Made by a program: the position numbers and the translations under genes
Virus record (IMG/VR): IMGVR_UViG_3300021387_001438
Location: 1 to 64,000 of that record
Reading direction: 5' to 3' (one strand)
Origin: a virus
Taxonomy: Duplodnaviria; Caudoviricetes
DNA: 64,000 nt
Notes under the pieces: model-generated
What the model was told of the DNA's origin: nothing
Databases searched by the model: none
Seen by the model: the letters and a program-made list of their open reading frames with translations, nothing else
Part shown: positions 1,905-64,000 of the stretch, piece by piece
Layout: each line of letters starts with the position of its first letter
How positions within the stretch are numbered: the stretch's first letter is position 1

Positions 1905-3602
1905 ATGGATGATAATAAGACAGTATCCTCTGGAGATTCAATAGTTAATTTATTTAAAGATGCGGTAATCAAAGAAGATGCACAAGCAGGTTTTGATGCT
2001 TGTTCGCTGCAAGATTCTCTACAGCATACAAGAGATTCGATTATCGAAAAAGCTAAAGGTTCTGAACCATTAAAAGCCACATTAACATGTGACCATTATA
2101 GAAATACATTAACTGCAACAGGAACTGCTGATAAAGTTCAATCCTTTGCTTCTTATGGTTATAATAATGATACACTAAATTGGCCTTTGTGGTTATCGCT
2201 ATATAATGATTCTTGGGTGTTCAAAAGAGCAATAGATAAACCAGCTACTGATGAAGTCAATAGCGGATTTGTTATTTCTGGTGATAAAGACTATACTAAA
2301 ATATATAAGGCTTTCGCCAAATATAAAAAGCAAATGTCAGACCTATTAAAATGGGGTGCATTATTTGGTGGTTCAATTGCGGTTATGATGTTTGAATCTG
2401 TACCAGATGAAGAAATGCAATATCCAATTAATAAGGAAAAAATTAAAGGTTCTCGTATGAAGCTGTATGTTACAGACCGTTGGTATGGTGTTGCACCTTC
2501 TTCAGAAACTGTTTCTAATATGAAGGATTTGGATTTTGGAAAGCCTAAAAAGTATTCCGTTACATTTGCCGATGGCAAAAACCTAACTGTAGACCATTCC
2601 TATGTTTTGCGATATGAACATCGTTCTGCTCCACCATTAATTAAGAATGGACAACTTCAAGGTTGGGGTTATGCAGAAGGAGCACATATATTAAATGAGT
2701 TATCTCGTGATGACCAATTAAAATCAGCGATTACATCGCTTGTAAATAAATCTTTAATTGAAGTAATTAAAATGGCTGGTATGAAAGCTGTGTTCATGGG
2801 AACAGATACAGCAAATGAAACTCAGTTGCGCAAGCGCCTTGAAATGGTCAATTGGGGACGAAATTATAACTCACTTACTTTCCTAGATAAAGATGATGAT
2901 TATCAGGAGCATGGTTTCCAAGGAATGACTGGTTTATCCGATTTGATGGAAAAGAACATGTGGCTAATCGCATCCGCTCTAGAAATGCAAGGTATTTTAT
3001 ATGGTGAGTTAAAAGGTGGATTATCACAGGATACTGATGCGTGGAAGCATTATGCAACCACTATCGAAAACAGATGTAATGATTTCTATAGACCTGTGTT
3101 ACAGAAGTTCCTTCAAGTATTGTTTATAATGTACGATGTTGAAGGTACAGTAGATTTTGAATTTAAGAGATTAGATGAGGTTGAACAAAATGATGCAAAA
3201 ATGGGAGCAGCAGAAAAGTTAAGCCACATCTTAAATGATTTATTAGATAAAAAAATTATTAGTAAATATCAATATGCAATATCTATCCAAAATATGTTGA
3301 GCAAGAATATTCTTGCGATTAACTTCACAGATGATTTCCTTGAAGCACTTAAGATGCAAGAGGATTATGATGTTCTTGAGATTATTAAGGAAGCTGGTAA
3401 AACAAAAGCTTCGAAAGAAGAGATTGTTGGAACACAATTTGGTGGTTCTGAATTACCAGAAGAATTATCTTATTTAGACCCGAATGCTCCAGATGAAGCA
3501 GCAGAATCTATCGGTGCAGAAACACCTAAAGCTGTTGGCGAGCCAGAAGCAACAGGTCAAGAACAAGTCTATGAAGGAGAAGACATAGATGTAAATGAAT
3601 AA
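1905..3602 (+). CDS. Portal protein, DUF1073 type
   Basis: 565 aa; YNDSWVFKRAIDKPATD, LFGGS and L+G...GGL motifs typical of DUF1073 portals; acidic C-terminal tail. Confidence 0.8.
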   Translation: MDDNKTVSSGDSIVNLFKDAVIKEDAQAGFDACSLQDSLQHTRDSIIEKAKGSEPLKATLTCDHYRNTLTATGTADKVQSFASYGYNNDTLNWPLWLSLYNDSWVFKRAIDKPATDEVNSGFVISGDKDYTKIYKAFAKYKKQMSDLLKWGALFGGSIAVMMFESVPDEEMQYPINKEKIKGSRMKLYVTDRWYGVAPSSETVSNMKDLDFGKPKKYSVTFADGKNLTVDHSYVLRYEHRSAPPLIKNGQLQGWGYAEGAHILNELSRDDQLKSAITSLVNKSLIEVIKMAGMKAVFMGTDTANETQLRKRLEMVNWGRNYNSLTFLDKDDDYQEHGFQGMTGLSDLMEKNMWLIASALEMQGILYGELKGGLSQDTDAWKHYATTIENRCNDFYRPVLQKFLQVLFIMYDVEGTVDFEFKRLDEVEQNDAKMGAAEKLSHILNDLLDKKIISKYQYAISIQNMLSKNILAINFTDDFLEALKMQEDYDVLEIIKEAGKTKASKEEIVGTQFGGSELPEELSYLDPNAPDEAAESIGAETPKAVGEPEATGQEQVYEGEDIDVNE

Positions 3603-4695: not shown

Positions 4696-4883
4696 CTACA
4701 CAAGACCAAACAGTTAGTGGTTATCATGAACCAAAACGAGTGCATCCTATCGTTTATATGTTGATAACAAATAATTTAGCAACATACAGAGAGTTGAAGT
4801 ATGAGCTGGATATTGATGATGTATTAAATTTATATGAGATATGTATGGTCAGCATATTCAATAAAAATTTATCTATGATGTAG
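4654..4883 (+). CDS. -1 frame extension of the tail chaperone (GT-like product)
   Basis: -1 frame is open from about 4629 to TAG 4881-4883, encodes HPIVYMLITNNLATYRELKYELDIDDVLNLYEI, has no RBS/start of its own; GTTTTTC run at 4654-4660. Confidence 0.55.
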
Positions 4884-4976
4884 ATTGATATCTATAAACT
4901 ATGCCTTTTGGTGAAATCACCAGAAGGTATCCTTATAGACATGAATCAAAAAATAGAATTGGAGGTAATTATTGTT

Positions 4977-6575
4977 ATGGCAGATATTGATAAGAAAATT
5001 AATTTAGTAGTCGATAGTAATGCAAAGGATAATTCAAAAGATTTTGATAAATTAAATAAAAGCATAAAAGAAGTTACCGACAATTTTAGTAAGCTAACAA
5101 AGTTAGCAAATAATAAAGGACTTGTCACAGGACTTAAAAATATTACTAAAGAAGTCAATGAGTTAAATAAGGGATTATTTAATTTAGGTGGTATGTCAAA
5201 GGTATTAAATGATGTACAAACTAAAATGGATAAATTAAATAAAGCCCTTAATAAATCTAATAGGTCTGGCTCAAGAGGTCCATATAAGAAATCCCCTCAG
5301 CAAGCAGCTAAGGAAGCAGCAAGACTTGAGAGAATAGAACAAGAAAGACTAAAAGAACAAACAGTTAAATATAATGATATCAAGGCAGAATTAGATGCTG
5401 CTAAAGAAAAAAGATATACGGATTTAAAGAATTTTGGTAGAGATGAAGCATTTAAACAATTTGGTACATCAGCACTTGATATAACAAAACAATTGTTTAA
5501 AAATAAATCTATAATTGGTACCTTAAGTGCTGTTGCAAGTTCAGTAGTTGGAGCAATGTCAACAAGAGCGACAACTAGTATTGGTAAAAGATATGCGGGT
5601 CAATATTTACCTATAGAAGATAGAATTGCAGATATGCAAGAATTTATTTCTAGACCTGGAACCTCTGCGGATACAATTAGAGCTGGTAAAGAATTTATTA
5701 AATCTCAGCAAAAAGAAAAGTTAAGGTTGCAAGGCGAAGAGGCTAAAGAAAAAGGTAAGGTTGCCGGTAAAGCGGCTGTGGCTGCAGCAGTTATATCGCT
5801 AGCAACGACAGCATTAAGTAAATTTAGCGATACTGTTAAATCTACTACTGGTATTACTGTAAGTCTAAAAGAAAACTTTGCTAACTTAATTCAATCGATT
5901 GGTTCAATAACTTCACTTCAAGGTGGAGCTGCAACATATATGGTTGGAAGTACATTATATACTAATCCAACCGCAAGAACCCAGCAGATGAAATATGGAC
6001 TTACAAATTCACAAAATTATGCATTATCAAGAACTATGACAATGATGAATCTTCAATCAGACGAAGACCTAATGTATATGAACAAAAATCAAGTTCAGTT
6101 GTTTAGCTCAATGATGCAAAAATACAGCTCTTGGTATGATAAAATGGAATCTTCTGGGGTATTGACAAGAGTCCAAGAAATGCAGATGGATTTACAGATG
6201 TTCAGAGAAGAGCTTGCAATGGACTTTATGGAATGGTTCAGTGAAAATAAGGATACTATTTTAAATGCTGTTAAGAATATTGCTAAGTTTGTTATGCAAA
6301 TTGCAGATGTTGTAGTTAAAGCAACCGGTTGGTTTGGACAAGGTATTAGCTGGTTGACTGGTCAATCTTCATCAACTTTGAGTGAAACAATGTCAAATGC
6401 AACATCATATTCTAATGCAAGCATTACAAGAGGAACCTCTAAAACAAATAACATAAATATAACTATGACAAACACTGCAACGGGAGTATTATCTGACCAA
6501 AGTCAAATGGAGAATTTCTTCAGTGAGCAGTTGGTAAATACATTCAAAGATGCTGTTGCAAGCTTAGATGAATAG
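4977..6575 (+). CDS. Tape measure protein (short, about 530 aa)
   Basis: RBS GGAGG before ATG 4977; helical K/A-rich sequence; sits between chaperone and baseplate genes; C-terminal ..NINITMTNT motif. Confidence 0.75.
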   Translation: MADIDKKINLVVDSNAKDNSKDFDKLNKSIKEVTDNFSKLTKLANNKGLVTGLKNITKEVNELNKGLFNLGGMSKVLNDVQTKMDKLNKALNKSNRSGSRGPYKKSPQQAAKEAARLERIEQERLKEQTVKYNDIKAELDAAKEKRYTDLKNFGRDEAFKQFGTSALDITKQLFKNKSIIGTLSAVASSVVGAMSTRATTSIGKRYAGQYLPIEDRIADMQEFISRPGTSADTIRAGKEFIKSQQKEKLRLQGEEAKEKGKVAGKAAVAAAVISLATTALSKFSDTVKSTTGITVSLKENFANLIQSIGSITSLQGGAATYMVGSTLYTNPTARTQQMKYGLTNSQNYALSRTMTMMNLQSDEDLMYMNKNQVQLFSSMMQKYSSWYDKMESSGVLTRVQEMQMDLQMFREELAMDFMEWFSENKDTILNAVKNIAKFVMQIADVVVKATGWFGQGISWLTGQSSSTLSETMSNATSYSNASITRGTSKTNNINITMTNTATGVLSDQSQMENFFSEQLVNTFKDAVASLDE

Positions 6576-60050: not shown

Positions 60051-60791
60051 TTATAAATTCTCACAAATCCAATTATGACAGATAGTTGTATCAACAATTA
60101 CCTCTGATTCATTACGAGCTTCATAGCATGCCAAGATAGCATCTGGATTTGTAATGACCATTTTATATAATTTTGGATTTGTATTATTTCCAGCTTTATT
60201 AAATCTTTCAGCAAACCATCTTGCTTTTTCTTTATCAACAGTCCATGATAAACCTTCAGGCTTTCCATTATGACTTACTCCTCGATAGACAGTTACTCCT
60301 GCTGGAAGTGAAGCAAGTCTTTTTAGAGTATTAAATGTATCAATCTCTTTTTTATCCATCAAGAAATCTTTATTTGCTTTTTTGAAATATCTTATTAGTT
60401 CTCTTCTATTTACATTATTATCTTGATTTGGCCATTCTTCCATTACATAGAATTCAGATAATAGCTTTGAAAAATCTTCATTAGATAAATAGATATTAAC
60501 ATATTTGAAGAAAGTCAAGTAATAACTTTTATTTAACAACATGACAATTCCAAACAAATCTTTTGCATTATCAATCTTTTCAAATGTTTCAGACTTAAAG
60601 ATTTCATAATCCTCTTTTTTATATAAATCTAAAATTTTTGGATTATCTTGATTTTCTTTTACTGATACATATAAATTATTACTTGTAAACGGATGTTGAA
60701 TTATAAAAGGAATTTTTGTTGCTTTAATTGGCACTGCCAAAAATAGCAACTTACTCATTTCTTTAATCTTATCTAAATTAGTTTGTTTCAT
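60051..60791 (-). CDS. ADP-ribosyltransferase-fold protein (R-S-E type), putative
   Basis: VTVYRG, GLSWT and RNESEVIV motifs in the C-terminal ~90 aa. Confidence 0.55.
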   Translation of the reverse strand: MKQTNLDKIKEMSKLLFLAVPIKATKIPFIIQHPFTSNNLYVSVKENQDNPKILDLYKKEDYEIFKSETFEKIDNAKDLFGIVMLLNKSYYLTFFKYVNIYLSNEDFSKLLSEFYVMEEWPNQDNNVNRRELIRYFKKANKDFLMDKKEIDTFNTLKRLASLPAGVTVYRGVSHNGKPEGLSWTVDKEKARWFAERFNKAGNNTNPKLYKMVITNPDAILACYEARNESEVIVDTTICHNWICENL

Positions 60792-60819: not shown

Positions 60820-61442
60820 TTGCCTCTACCATACACTAGCTCACTTTGCCTACACACTACCATACTCGACTCTACCATAACATGACTGCCTGTTACTTTA
60901 CCATAACTGGTCTACTCCTCGCTTTGCCGAAACTTCACTTTACTAAACCTTACCTTTGCATTTCAAATCTTGACTTCGCCCATACGATATTATGCTGGAC
61001 CCAACGTCACCGATACATTGTTACACCAATCTTTGCCTAAACTAGGATGTACTATACAATTCCAAAACGGTACCATAAATTGCTTTGCCTAAGCTCCACG
61101 ATGCAAGACTTTACCAATACTCTACCTTACGTCACTAGACTTCACCTTGACAATACCATGTCTTACTTTACCACAACTAAACACTAATTAACTTCGGTCC
61201 ACTTTGCCTTGACTAAACTTATCTACACCGATACTGTTTATTAGTCTACTATACTGTACCTCTACCTTACCAAACTTTACCATAGCACGACCAATCCTTA
61301 CATCACCTTCACTAAACTTAATGGCACTTTACTTTTCCGTAACATAACCTTTCAAGACTATGCCAATGCACAACTTCTCTTTAATACACTTTGCCAAAAC
61401 GCCACCCTACCAATCTTGACTTATCCATTACAAGACGAGGCC
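60820..61442 (-). repeat. Pentamer-periodic array 1 (NGY-NN units in about 23 blocks); candidate guide-RNA array
   Basis: - strand reads e.g. GGC aa AGT gt ATT aa AGA ga AGT tg TGC a tt GGC at AGT ct...; no - strand ORF of 60 aa or more in 620 nt; C-rich + strand unlike the rest of the genome. Confidence 0.9.
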
Positions 61443-61478: not shown

Positions 61479-61501
61479 GGAGAGAGACTAAATCTCTCTC
61501 C
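61479..61501 (-). terminator. 9-bp hairpin centred on the RAMP stop codon (terminator or processing site)
   Basis: GGAGAGAGA-CTAAA-TCTCTCTCC; the loop contains the TAG stop. Confidence 0.55.
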
Positions 61502-62078
61502 AACTGAATGAACCCTTACCGGAATTACGCCACTGAAGAAGTCCATTGAATTTTCCATAATCTAACCATTCTTTAATTAATGGTAGGTCTTCATCACACA
61601 ACATAACAATCTTAAATTTACATGTTGCACCGGCAGCAATTTCTTCAGAAATAGCAAGCGAGATTCTTTCACCCTGCATTGTTTGACATCTTAGAGGTCT
61701 CTGACATTCTGTGATTTCAGAATAATTCTCAATCACATTTTCTCTTCCTTCAACAAATACTCTTAGGTCAATATGCTTCTTGAAGGCTTTTAATTGACTA
61801 GATAGAGTACCTTTAACTTTTGATAGTGCTGAACATGCAGACTTGAAGAATCCTTTTAACTGATAGTCATAAATAAATGGCTTACCATCTTTGGTTCTTG
61901 GAAAGAATGTTTTACCTTTATCAACAACATTATCTTTTCCAATGGCTTCAATCTCTTCTTCTAGCTTCTGAGCATCTGGAGCCTTACTACCGATGAATGA
62001 ACGATATACATCTTTATCTCCTGTTTGAGTTCCTAATAAACCCTGTAAAAAAGTTACTTCAATATTTAATGTTTTCAT
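61488..62078 (-). CDS. Stand-alone RAMP / Cas7-like protein (196 aa)
   Basis: RBS AAGGAGA at 62091-62097 before ATG 62078; first strand LNIEVTFLQGLLG, PFIYDYQLKGFFKSAC, C-terminal glycine loop YGKFNGLLQWRNSGKGSF. Confidence 0.75.
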   Translation of the reverse strand: MKTLNIEVTFLQGLLGTQTGDKDVYRSFIGSKAPDAQKLEEEIEAIGKDNVVDKGKTFFPRTKDGKPFIYDYQLKGFFKSACSALSKVKGTLSSQLKAFKKHIDLRVFVEGRENVIENYSEITECQRPLRCQTMQGERISLAISEEIAAGATCKFKIVMLCDEDLPLIKEWLDYGKFNGLLQWRNSGKGSFSWREI

Positions 62079-62152: not shown

Positions 62153-62461
62153 CTACATCTTTTGCCAATGCCATACAAAACCACACTTTACCATTACCGG
62201 ACCGGACAATACTTTTCCATTGCACTTTTGGACAATACTTTACCAACACGACAGCCAACTATTCTATGCTGGTACTTTACCAACACTGTTCCAAGCTATT
62301 CCATTACAGTACCATACCAAACCTTACCAACACTCCACTGAACAAGGCCTTGCCGTCACAAATCTTTTCTTGGTATCACATCACCATCACAAAACCACGC
62401 TTTACCATTACCGTCACAACGCCACACCTCACCGTCACAACGCCACACATCACCGATACTT
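62153..62461 (-). repeat. Pentamer-periodic array 2 (same grammar, about 13 blocks)
   Basis: - strand e.g. GGT aa AGT at TGT cc AAA ag TGC a at GGA aa AGT at TGT cc GGT cc GGT a at GGT aa AGT; 21-nt block duplicated at 62410-62451. Confidence 0.88.
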
Positions 62462-62821: not shown

Positions 62822-63043
62822 TTAGGTCCAAATGAAATCTACTACATTTACTGTGATATCATTATGCTTGTAGACTTCAACTAATTTATCAAGTGTAGAT
62901 AACCTTATATCACCTGCAATATCTAGATTCTTTTCTAATCCAGATTGGTACACTAATTTTGCTTTCATGATTAATTTTTTATTATCACTTGACACATCTT
63001 TTAATGAATCTTTTACATTGATAATCATATTGATAACCTCCAA
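62822..63043 (-). CDS. Hypothetical early protein
   Basis: RBS GGAGG; true start likely MIINVKD. Confidence 0.55.
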   Translation of the reverse strand: MEVINMIINVKDSLKDVSSDNKKLIMKAKLVYQSGLEKNLDIAGDIRLSTLDKLVEVYKHNDITVNVVDFIWT

Positions 63044-63085
63044 AATGTAAATATTAATTCTTTGAACTTCTAAACTTACATACTT

Positions 63086-63114
63086 ATTATATAATACTTT
63101 TTATACTTTGTACA
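63086..63114 (-). promoter_or_regulatory. Early promoter TGTACA-N17-TATAAT
   Basis: Directly upstream of the first early gene. Confidence 0.55.
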
Positions 63115-63472
63115 CATATTTTTAATAAAATTTTATTTTTTTTCTTCTTATAAAAATACGTGTGTGCACATATGCACACGTAATAAAAAATAAAATATAA
63201 ATAAGATATGAACATGAATAAAATAAAAAATATTTATATTCATAATGATGCACCCAAAATATTTTGAATATATGACTGTTCAGAAATATTTATTATGTTT
63301 TATGGATTTTTAGTATACCTAAAATTTGAATACGATTATAGCTTGATTGTTTTGATTTTGGATTGTGTGTTTAACGATTTATAGGAGAATATTTTAGGCA
63401 CATCATTATAAATATAAATATTAAATTTGATTGATTTGAATATTAAATTTGATTGATTTATTTTCTATATTT

Positions 63473-63501
63473 ATTATATATCATAACTTGTAAAACGTAA
63501 A
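63473..63501 (-). promoter_or_regulatory. Early promoter TTTACG-N17-TATAAT
   Basis: ATTATA 63473-63478, CGTAAA 63496-63501. Confidence 0.55.
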
Positions 63502-63795
63502 TAAGTTAATGTAAAAACAATAAATTTTATTGGTTACGATGAAACAAAAAACAGCGAAAATGCTATACTGGCGAAGCAGAATAGCTGGAAAATTAGGAAC
63601 AATAAAAAGGAAAAGAGAATGAAAATTACTTAAAAAGTTACTTAAAAACAACTTAAAAACTTTTTTTGAGATGAAAATTAGAGTAATGAAAATGATTCAA
63701 AAATGCTGATTTAAAATGTAAATATTCCGTAACTGGAACTAAGGACTGGTAATTTAAACTTTCAATTGGAAGTTTTAAACTATTAAATAAATTTG

Positions 63796-63922
63796 TGTAA
63801 AAATGTGTAAAGAACTGTAAAAAATTGTAAATCAAAAATTTTATTAAATAAGTGTGTAAGTTTAGATGAAAAACAGAGCAAAGCTCTTACACTTTTTTTA
63901 CACTTTTTTACAAAACTTTACA
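63796..63922. repeat. Helically phased inverted iteron clusters (TGTAAA x4 / TTTACA-like x4)
   Basis: TGTAAA at 63796, 63806, 63816, 63826; CTTACA 63886, TTTACA 63897, 63907, 63917. Confidence 0.7.
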
Positions 63923-64000
63923 AATTTTGGATTTAAACTCACAGATACAAATTTATTTTAAATCTATAAAGTGGGTACGGAATACTTACGTTTCAATTTT

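Follow-up and report, generated by a model that had tools for sequence, protein, structure and literature searches.

The pentamer tract on the minus strand at positions 60826-61442 of the phage sequence analysed here (a window of 64,000 nucleotides, taken from a virus record of 75 kb; the phage has 29% GC) is probably the downstream guide-RNA array of a VIPR system of the staggered type, in which each block of pentamers most likely represents a separate guide. VIPR, made known in preprints of 2026, consists of a RAMP protein, Vipr, and of vrRNAs built from GGY/NN pentamers. One Vipr protomer is bound per repeat, the GGY triplet is flipped into pockets of the protein and the NN dinucleotides pair with double-stranded DNA, every third target base being skipped; competing phages and satellites are silenced in this way (bioRxiv 10.64898/2026.04.26.720920). 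The systems are divided into types I-VII, the filament has 5 (ternary) to 6 (binary) protomers per turn with a protomer footprint of YNNGG, the characterised vrRNAs contain 9-16 repeats, and NNNGG, YNNNG and NNNNG are named in the Methods as alternative repeats (bioRxiv 10.64898/2026.04.26.720920). The legend of fig. S18 speaks of 'staggered vrRNA arrays' and, as far as that legend goes, presents the staggered junctions as borders of processed vrRNAs; staggered arrays are not among the architectures confirmed by small-RNA sequencing (bioRxiv 10.64898/2026.04.26.720920). A second group has reported WGT/NN motif clusters next to Vipr-like folds (bioRxiv 10.64898/2026.10.21.760802). The staggered layout is already described in these preprints, and the present locus is a further example of it and no new kind of system. 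Bench work on VIPR has so far dealt only with type II, whose guides are long and tailed, and the locus together with about 130 relatives gives a quantitative description of the staggered architecture in terms of guide starts, lengths, fixed letters and cassette turnover. The units per block, the conserved end units, the slip ratio and the block polymorphism were computed here, and may also be contained in the preprint.

Autocorrelation of G along the minus strand of 60820-61442, which is C-poor (10% C), has a peak at lag 5 (0.36); the later peaks drift to 5n+1 and are found at 21 (0.32), 26 (0.46), 31 (0.43), 52 (0.43) and 57 (0.41). Both peaks expected in a preliminary description of the tract, at 5 and 26, are present. 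The strand was parsed with a Viterbi model of xGYNN units, which scores the G and the Y only and gives equal penalties to +1 and -1 slips. The parse yields 23 blocks of 3-7 pentamers with a score of 188, against -16 ± 11 in 200 shuffles, so that the five-base rhythm with one extra base per block is real. The earlier figure of about 23 blocks stands, whereas their size has to be narrowed from mostly 4-7 pentamers to mostly 5-6. All the internal junctions (22/22) are +1 insertions, and GG opens every one of the 23 blocks although the parser does not score that letter; the preliminary description was right about the nature of this opening and slightly low in its count (22 of 23 junctions). The third letter of the blocks is T in 11, C in nine and A in three cases. 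With the extra base included, 12 blocks measure 26 nt, six 31 nt, two 21 nt, one 16 nt and one 36 nt, and one end block was tallied as 32 by the script. Seven blocks open with GGYAAAGT, which had been noticed as a frequent start, and 15 with the looser GG-H-R-A-N-G-Y. Within the blocks it is indeed the middle G that is near-invariant, being kept in 84 of 97 units, and the commonest triplets are AGT (34), GGT (14), TGT (10), CGT (7) and AGA (6), with sporadic broken units (ATT, CAT, TAA, ACC).

Array 1 is not coding, in agreement with the first reading of the tract. There are 9, 22 and 23 stops in the minus frames and 7, 14 and 4 in the plus frames, and all six frames are closed, the longest open stretch being 66 codons. 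The end of the array abuts the ribosome-binding site of the next gene with no gap. A search of the array against Rfam returned no family and no hammerhead, and its predicted RNA fold is not significant (z -0.8).

The gene vipr (61488-62078, minus strand) is localised between array 1 and a second array and encodes a protein of 196 aa with a C-terminal glycine-rich loop (GLLQWRNSGKGSF). Pfam and PHROG searches with this protein gave no match, and its 3927 homologues are all unnamed. An AlphaFold (AF2) model built on 30 homologues, with a pLDDT of 81, predicts a single-RRM RAMP of Cas7/Csm3 type. The best Foldseek matches of the model in the PDB are type VII Cas7 and Csm3 (E 1.7e-8), VIA-align gives Z scores of 12.8-12.0 with a Csm complex chain, Cmr-beta, Csm3, gRAMP and type VII Cas7, and the profile of the family matches the G-loop of Csm4 and Cas7. 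On the basis of this model the protein is a Cas7/Csm3-type RAMP. The backbone proteins of class 1 CRISPR systems (Csm3, Cmr4 and Cas7 of types III, VII and IV) share with it the RAMP fold, at the Z of up to 12.8 given above, as well as the thumb, the G-loop and a periodic grip on the guide RNA; however, the grip of Cas7, which works as part of a multi-subunit complex, falls on each sixth base of a repeat-spacer crRNA, and the period here is five.

The closest characterised system for comparison is the type II VIPR of Escherichia phage SUSP1 (Vipr ALH47069.1, whose sequence matches PDB 36pp; vrRNA1-4 and vap1). Its Vipr protein has a similar length, about 195 aa, and the same order of elements, that is an N-terminal strand MKxLNI, the thumb and a G-loop of the form G..G.WR..G.F; arrays lie likewise on both sides of the gene, and their repeat measures 5 nt and takes up one protomer. 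BLASTP detected no similarity between the two proteins. An hhalign comparison is colinear over 170 columns with 24% identity, though weak (E 0.036, low probability), and PDB 36pp is absent among the fold-library matches listed for our model. On this weak alignment the G-loop reads QWR here and DWR in SUSP1, and the residues H17 and D177 of SUSP1, reported to read G1 (bioRxiv 10.64898/2026.04.26.720920), correspond to T17 and Q182. These substitutions may be a lead toward the reason why position 1 of the unit is free in the present clade. The guides of the two systems differ in their construction. Parsed with the same model, the SUSP1 arrays consist of 12-15 in-phase GGYNN units and a tail, with no stagger; their tail is structured and of about 40 nt, whereas the present blocks, of 5-6 units, are staggered by +1 and lack both tail and structure. 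Position 1 is free in them, and a neighbour similar to vap1 was not found at the present locus. With the staggered VIPR arrays, on the other hand, the locus shares a small RAMP gene that stands alone between long non-coding pentamer tracts on the coding strand in a viral context, a GGY triplet of which only part is fixed, and tail-less abutting guides that each stand one base out of step with the previous one; the identity of that layout with array 1 is judged from what the fig. S18 legend says.

The association between gene and array was followed in 84 loci from IMG/VR and phage records and in 49 loci from GTDB genomes, the latter mostly gut MAGs, animal and human, of Clostridia such as Oscillospiraceae and Ruminococcaceae. 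Directly next to the vipr homologue, on its coding strand, a period-5 G array is present in 83 of the 84 viral and 47 of the 49 GTDB loci (130/133 together), usually downstream of the gene, and such arrays occur almost nowhere else in the flanks. The pairing spans genomes of very different GC, the unit becoming xGCNN in GC-rich phages. Slips are strongly biased, with 1013 +1 against 96 -1 junctions in the viral loci and 617 against 64 in the genome loci. After a +1 junction, 92% of the blocks in viral loci and 90% in genome loci open with GG, again at a letter that the parser leaves unscored. Sizes of 5, 6 and 7 units dominate within a range of 3-9. Within the unit the fixed G has an entropy of 0.44 bits, and the four remaining positions reach 1.7-1.96 bits. 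Block logos of the clade show a conserved first unit, GG-[A/C/T]-A-[A/T], which in the present phage takes the form GGYAA-AGT; in the GC-rich clade the last unit is conserved too (xGCAA). The base inserted at the junctions is seldom G. A conserved vap gene was not found, and no neighbour family is common to the loci of the clade. The largest guide set among the loci compared belongs to a 155-kb IMG/VR contig (L077), where an upstream array of 1.4 kb with about 47 blocks (1958-3395) and a downstream array of about 11 blocks (4747-5110) flank one vipr gene. In many IMG/VR loci of temperate, GC-rich phages, as at 2181-2976 of locus L001, vipr is located directly 3' of a cro-like HTH gene and a divergent repressor-like gene, which would place the vipr of these temperate relatives in an early, immunity-region operon.

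Natural relatives show how the blocks change. In loci L085 and L086, whose Vipr proteins are 88-90% identical to the present one, nearly every block is different while the grammar is intact, and only a few homologous blocks are still recognisable. Contigs of four other sequencing runs also differ from the window: indels of 5, 36 and 62 nt and one net change of +31 nt are present, and these sizes coincide with units and blocks. The 5-nt indel, found in three runs, lengthens a block by one unit. The 36-nt deletion coincides precisely with the block at 61173-61208 of the minus strand (seven units and the extra base), in register between two neighbouring GGYAAAGT starts; in run X5 the joint 61164->61201 skips these 36 nt. 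In runs X5 and X6 the joints 61143/61144->61206/61207 skip 62 nt, which correspond to the 36-nt block and the next 26-nt block. The same or near-identical blocks are also found in different arrays with different neighbours. Gain and loss of blocks among related phages, proposed at the outset as a check, is found as whole-block deletions, a net gain of 31 nt and replaced contents. The turnover is similar to that of spacers in CRISPR arrays, and unequal recombination between the conserved starts may underlie it. The preliminary description had taken the blocks for individual guides or processing units. The guide reading fits the RAMP gene, its nearly constant pairing with an array, the conserved starts and ends of the blocks and the modular turnover, and comparison of the sequences supports modular guides; cutting at the junctions would be a further, inferred step.

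The second array, upstream of vipr (about 62160-62454, minus strand), has the same grammar by autocorrelation and Viterbi parse and contains about 13 blocks of 1-6 units. Two adjacent 4-unit blocks, 62454-62435 and 62433-62414, are copies that differ at a single position-1 base (TGTGT versus GGTGT). The pair looks like a recent tandem duplication, which would be one way for new blocks to arise. Array 2 is missing from the closest relatives, L085-L087, and in two other runs 205-212 nt, most of the array, are replaced by 47-49 other letters.

We propose, by analogy with type II VIPR, that the lone Cas7-like Vipr would form a polymer along the array transcript, each protomer covering five bases. 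The near-invariant G and the pyrimidine after it would be gripped by the protein, and the two variable bases would stay exposed and read double-stranded DNA, every third target base being skipped; this would presumably be directed against competing mobile elements. At its second level the grammar may be understood as punctuation. Since the published footprint is YNNGG, the corresponding footprint here would be YNNxG, and the 'extra base' and the 'GG' merge into a single added G. In this notation the array is [G(YNNxG)n]m, with 5-6 footprints per run and one extra G between runs, which puts each block out of register with its neighbours and so would give the one-base stagger. Most likely each block would give rise to its own short guide, about one filament turn long and with a conserved start (GGYAAAGT here), and the blocks may be gained, lost and exchanged as cassettes, probably via recombination between these starts.

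The same VIPR system could also be imagined to build one long Vipr filament over many blocks, the extra base forming a bulge at each helical turn that is anchored by the full GG. The 5-6 units of a block do equal the published five (ternary) to six (binary) protomers per turn, and single blocks have low specificity, with no depletion of single-block matches in the phage's own genome. A fixed geometry, however, would forbid both the variation of blocks from 3 to 9 units and the one-unit indels in relatives. The deletion, insertion and reshuffling of blocks between close relatives would break a long contiguous target, so that whole-block turnover argues against such a filament; moreover, the conserved block starts and ends look like termini, and the VIPR authors present the junctions, in the fig. 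S18 legend at least, as borders of processed vrRNAs (bioRxiv 10.64898/2026.04.26.720920). We therefore hold the long filament to be unlikely. Far less probable still is that the array is no guide at all and serves as a TRAP- or CsrA-like sponge RNA, as a DNA structural repeat with a 5.2-bp phase or as an odd coding sequence. Triplets two bases apart recall TRAP sites and a mean period of 5.2 corresponds to half a turn of the DNA helix, but the closed reading frames speak against coding, the link to a Cas7-fold gene is tight and strand-specific in hosts of very different GC, the variable positions turn over very fast while the grammar is kept, and the published VIPR biochemistry explains every feature. 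The sponge and the DNA phasing were both dropped because of the Cas7/Csm3 fold predicted for the neighbouring protein and the VIPR literature.

The letters that are read have to be considered too. The preliminary description had suggested a code of GY+NNN. In such a code position 1 (x) would be read in the clade together with N4 and N5, and a block of 5-6 units would specify 14-17 bases. Position 1 is as variable as the two other letters (1.96 bits against 1.86 and 1.95), and in 123 independent near-identical block pairs it changes in 7.6% of cases against 4.4% and 7.0% for N4 and N5 (p 0.16). The substitution of the two G1-reading residues of SUSP1 by T17 and Q182, on the weak alignment, points in the same direction, x depends on the preceding NN, and a third letter would ease the problem of specificity. 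In the solved type II complex, however, position 1 is flipped into a protein pocket (bioRxiv 10.64898/2026.04.26.720920), and the local search brought up no conspicuous NNN matches, contiguous or gapped. The N4N5x triplets were also tried as codons and rejected: stop triplets are depleted (176 versus 238 ± 10.5, dereplicated and stratified), yet x does not follow wobble usage. The correlation of P(x|NN) with codon third-position usage is -0.08, at -0.49 bits per triplet relative to independence, and P(x|NN) resembles instead generic out-of-frame trinucleotide biases such as TAG/CTA avoidance (correlation 0.49-0.65). As x does not track wobble usage, the spelling of one block, similar to a ribosome-binding site plus ATG, is read as a coincidence. 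The three-letter code is not supported by these results, in which no target decides the reading rule, and we regard it as quite unlikely. The published two-letter NN rule is kept as the default, and the variable position 1 agrees with the published YNNNG repeat variant. Among the frames compared, codon positions 1-2 in sense orientation match the composition of NN best, by a small margin; this marginal fit agrees with the published wobble-skip logic and is confounded by the C-poor composition.

By the two-letter rule no more than 10-12 bases are specified by a block of 5-6 units, a number that falls if the conserved units at its two ends go unread; this raises the question of how so few specified bases give useful targeting. 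The phage's own 75-kb genome contains 13 perfect NNx matches to 26 guides, against 16.4 ± 4.1 by chance. Self-matches are no fewer than expected, and such sites may therefore be harmless, or single blocks insufficient. In a search of 1.4 Mb of related loci with NN and NNN codes and skips of 0-3, no model rose above the unit-shuffled controls; skip-3 and NNx-skip-2 matches have a 5-nt step and probably lie in unmasked array remnants. Longer blocks with 0-2 mismatches gave 6 matches versus 4 in the control. The only 7-unit guide of the window had more than 113 scattered matches in an IMG/VR scan, as by chance, and the other guides were not clustered on the contigs concerned (75 versus 78-88). 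The guides are too short for single matches to be significant. A VIPR with mini-guides of 5-6 repeats, each of one turn, could have its specificity rescued by the third letter or by several blocks acting on one element; we consider this rather improbable, but if true it would represent a decoding rule unlike the published GGY/NN one-base-skip rule in a widespread clade of Clostridia phages.

The six adjacent ORFs gave no match in a search for cas families (Pfam), neither the two arrays nor the rest of the locus showed a repeat-spacer organisation of CRISPR type, and BLASTN of the locus against phage records found no match. Directly after array 1 lies a gene of 246 aa (60051-60791, minus strand), whose only match is phrog_4776, a family with no known function; an ADP-ribosyltransferase had been suggested for it earlier as a possibility. 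It stands beside vipr in none of the approximately 130 related loci and is thus probably not a VIPR accessory gene. An upstream gene of 105 aa is common only to L085 and L086.

Between vipr and array 1 a perfect 9-bp hairpin (GGAGAGAGA-TTTAG-TCTCTCTCC) can be read directly from the minus strand at 61479-61501, with the vipr stop codon TAG in its loop. A consensus terminator scan did not call this hairpin, which may protect the 3' end of the mRNA or act as an attenuator. L085 and L086 carry a similar TCTCT..CC stretch 3' of vipr. At 63024-63114 on the minus strand, 5' of the small genes that come before array 2, two consensus matches resemble sigma-70 promoters and are candidates for the operon promoters from which the VIPR locus would be transcribed. 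The end of the window (63100-64000) is non-coding and very AT-rich (21% GC); TGTAAA and ACTTAAAAA are repeated there with a phase of 10-11 bp, and this region had been suggested earlier as a possible origin or packaging site.
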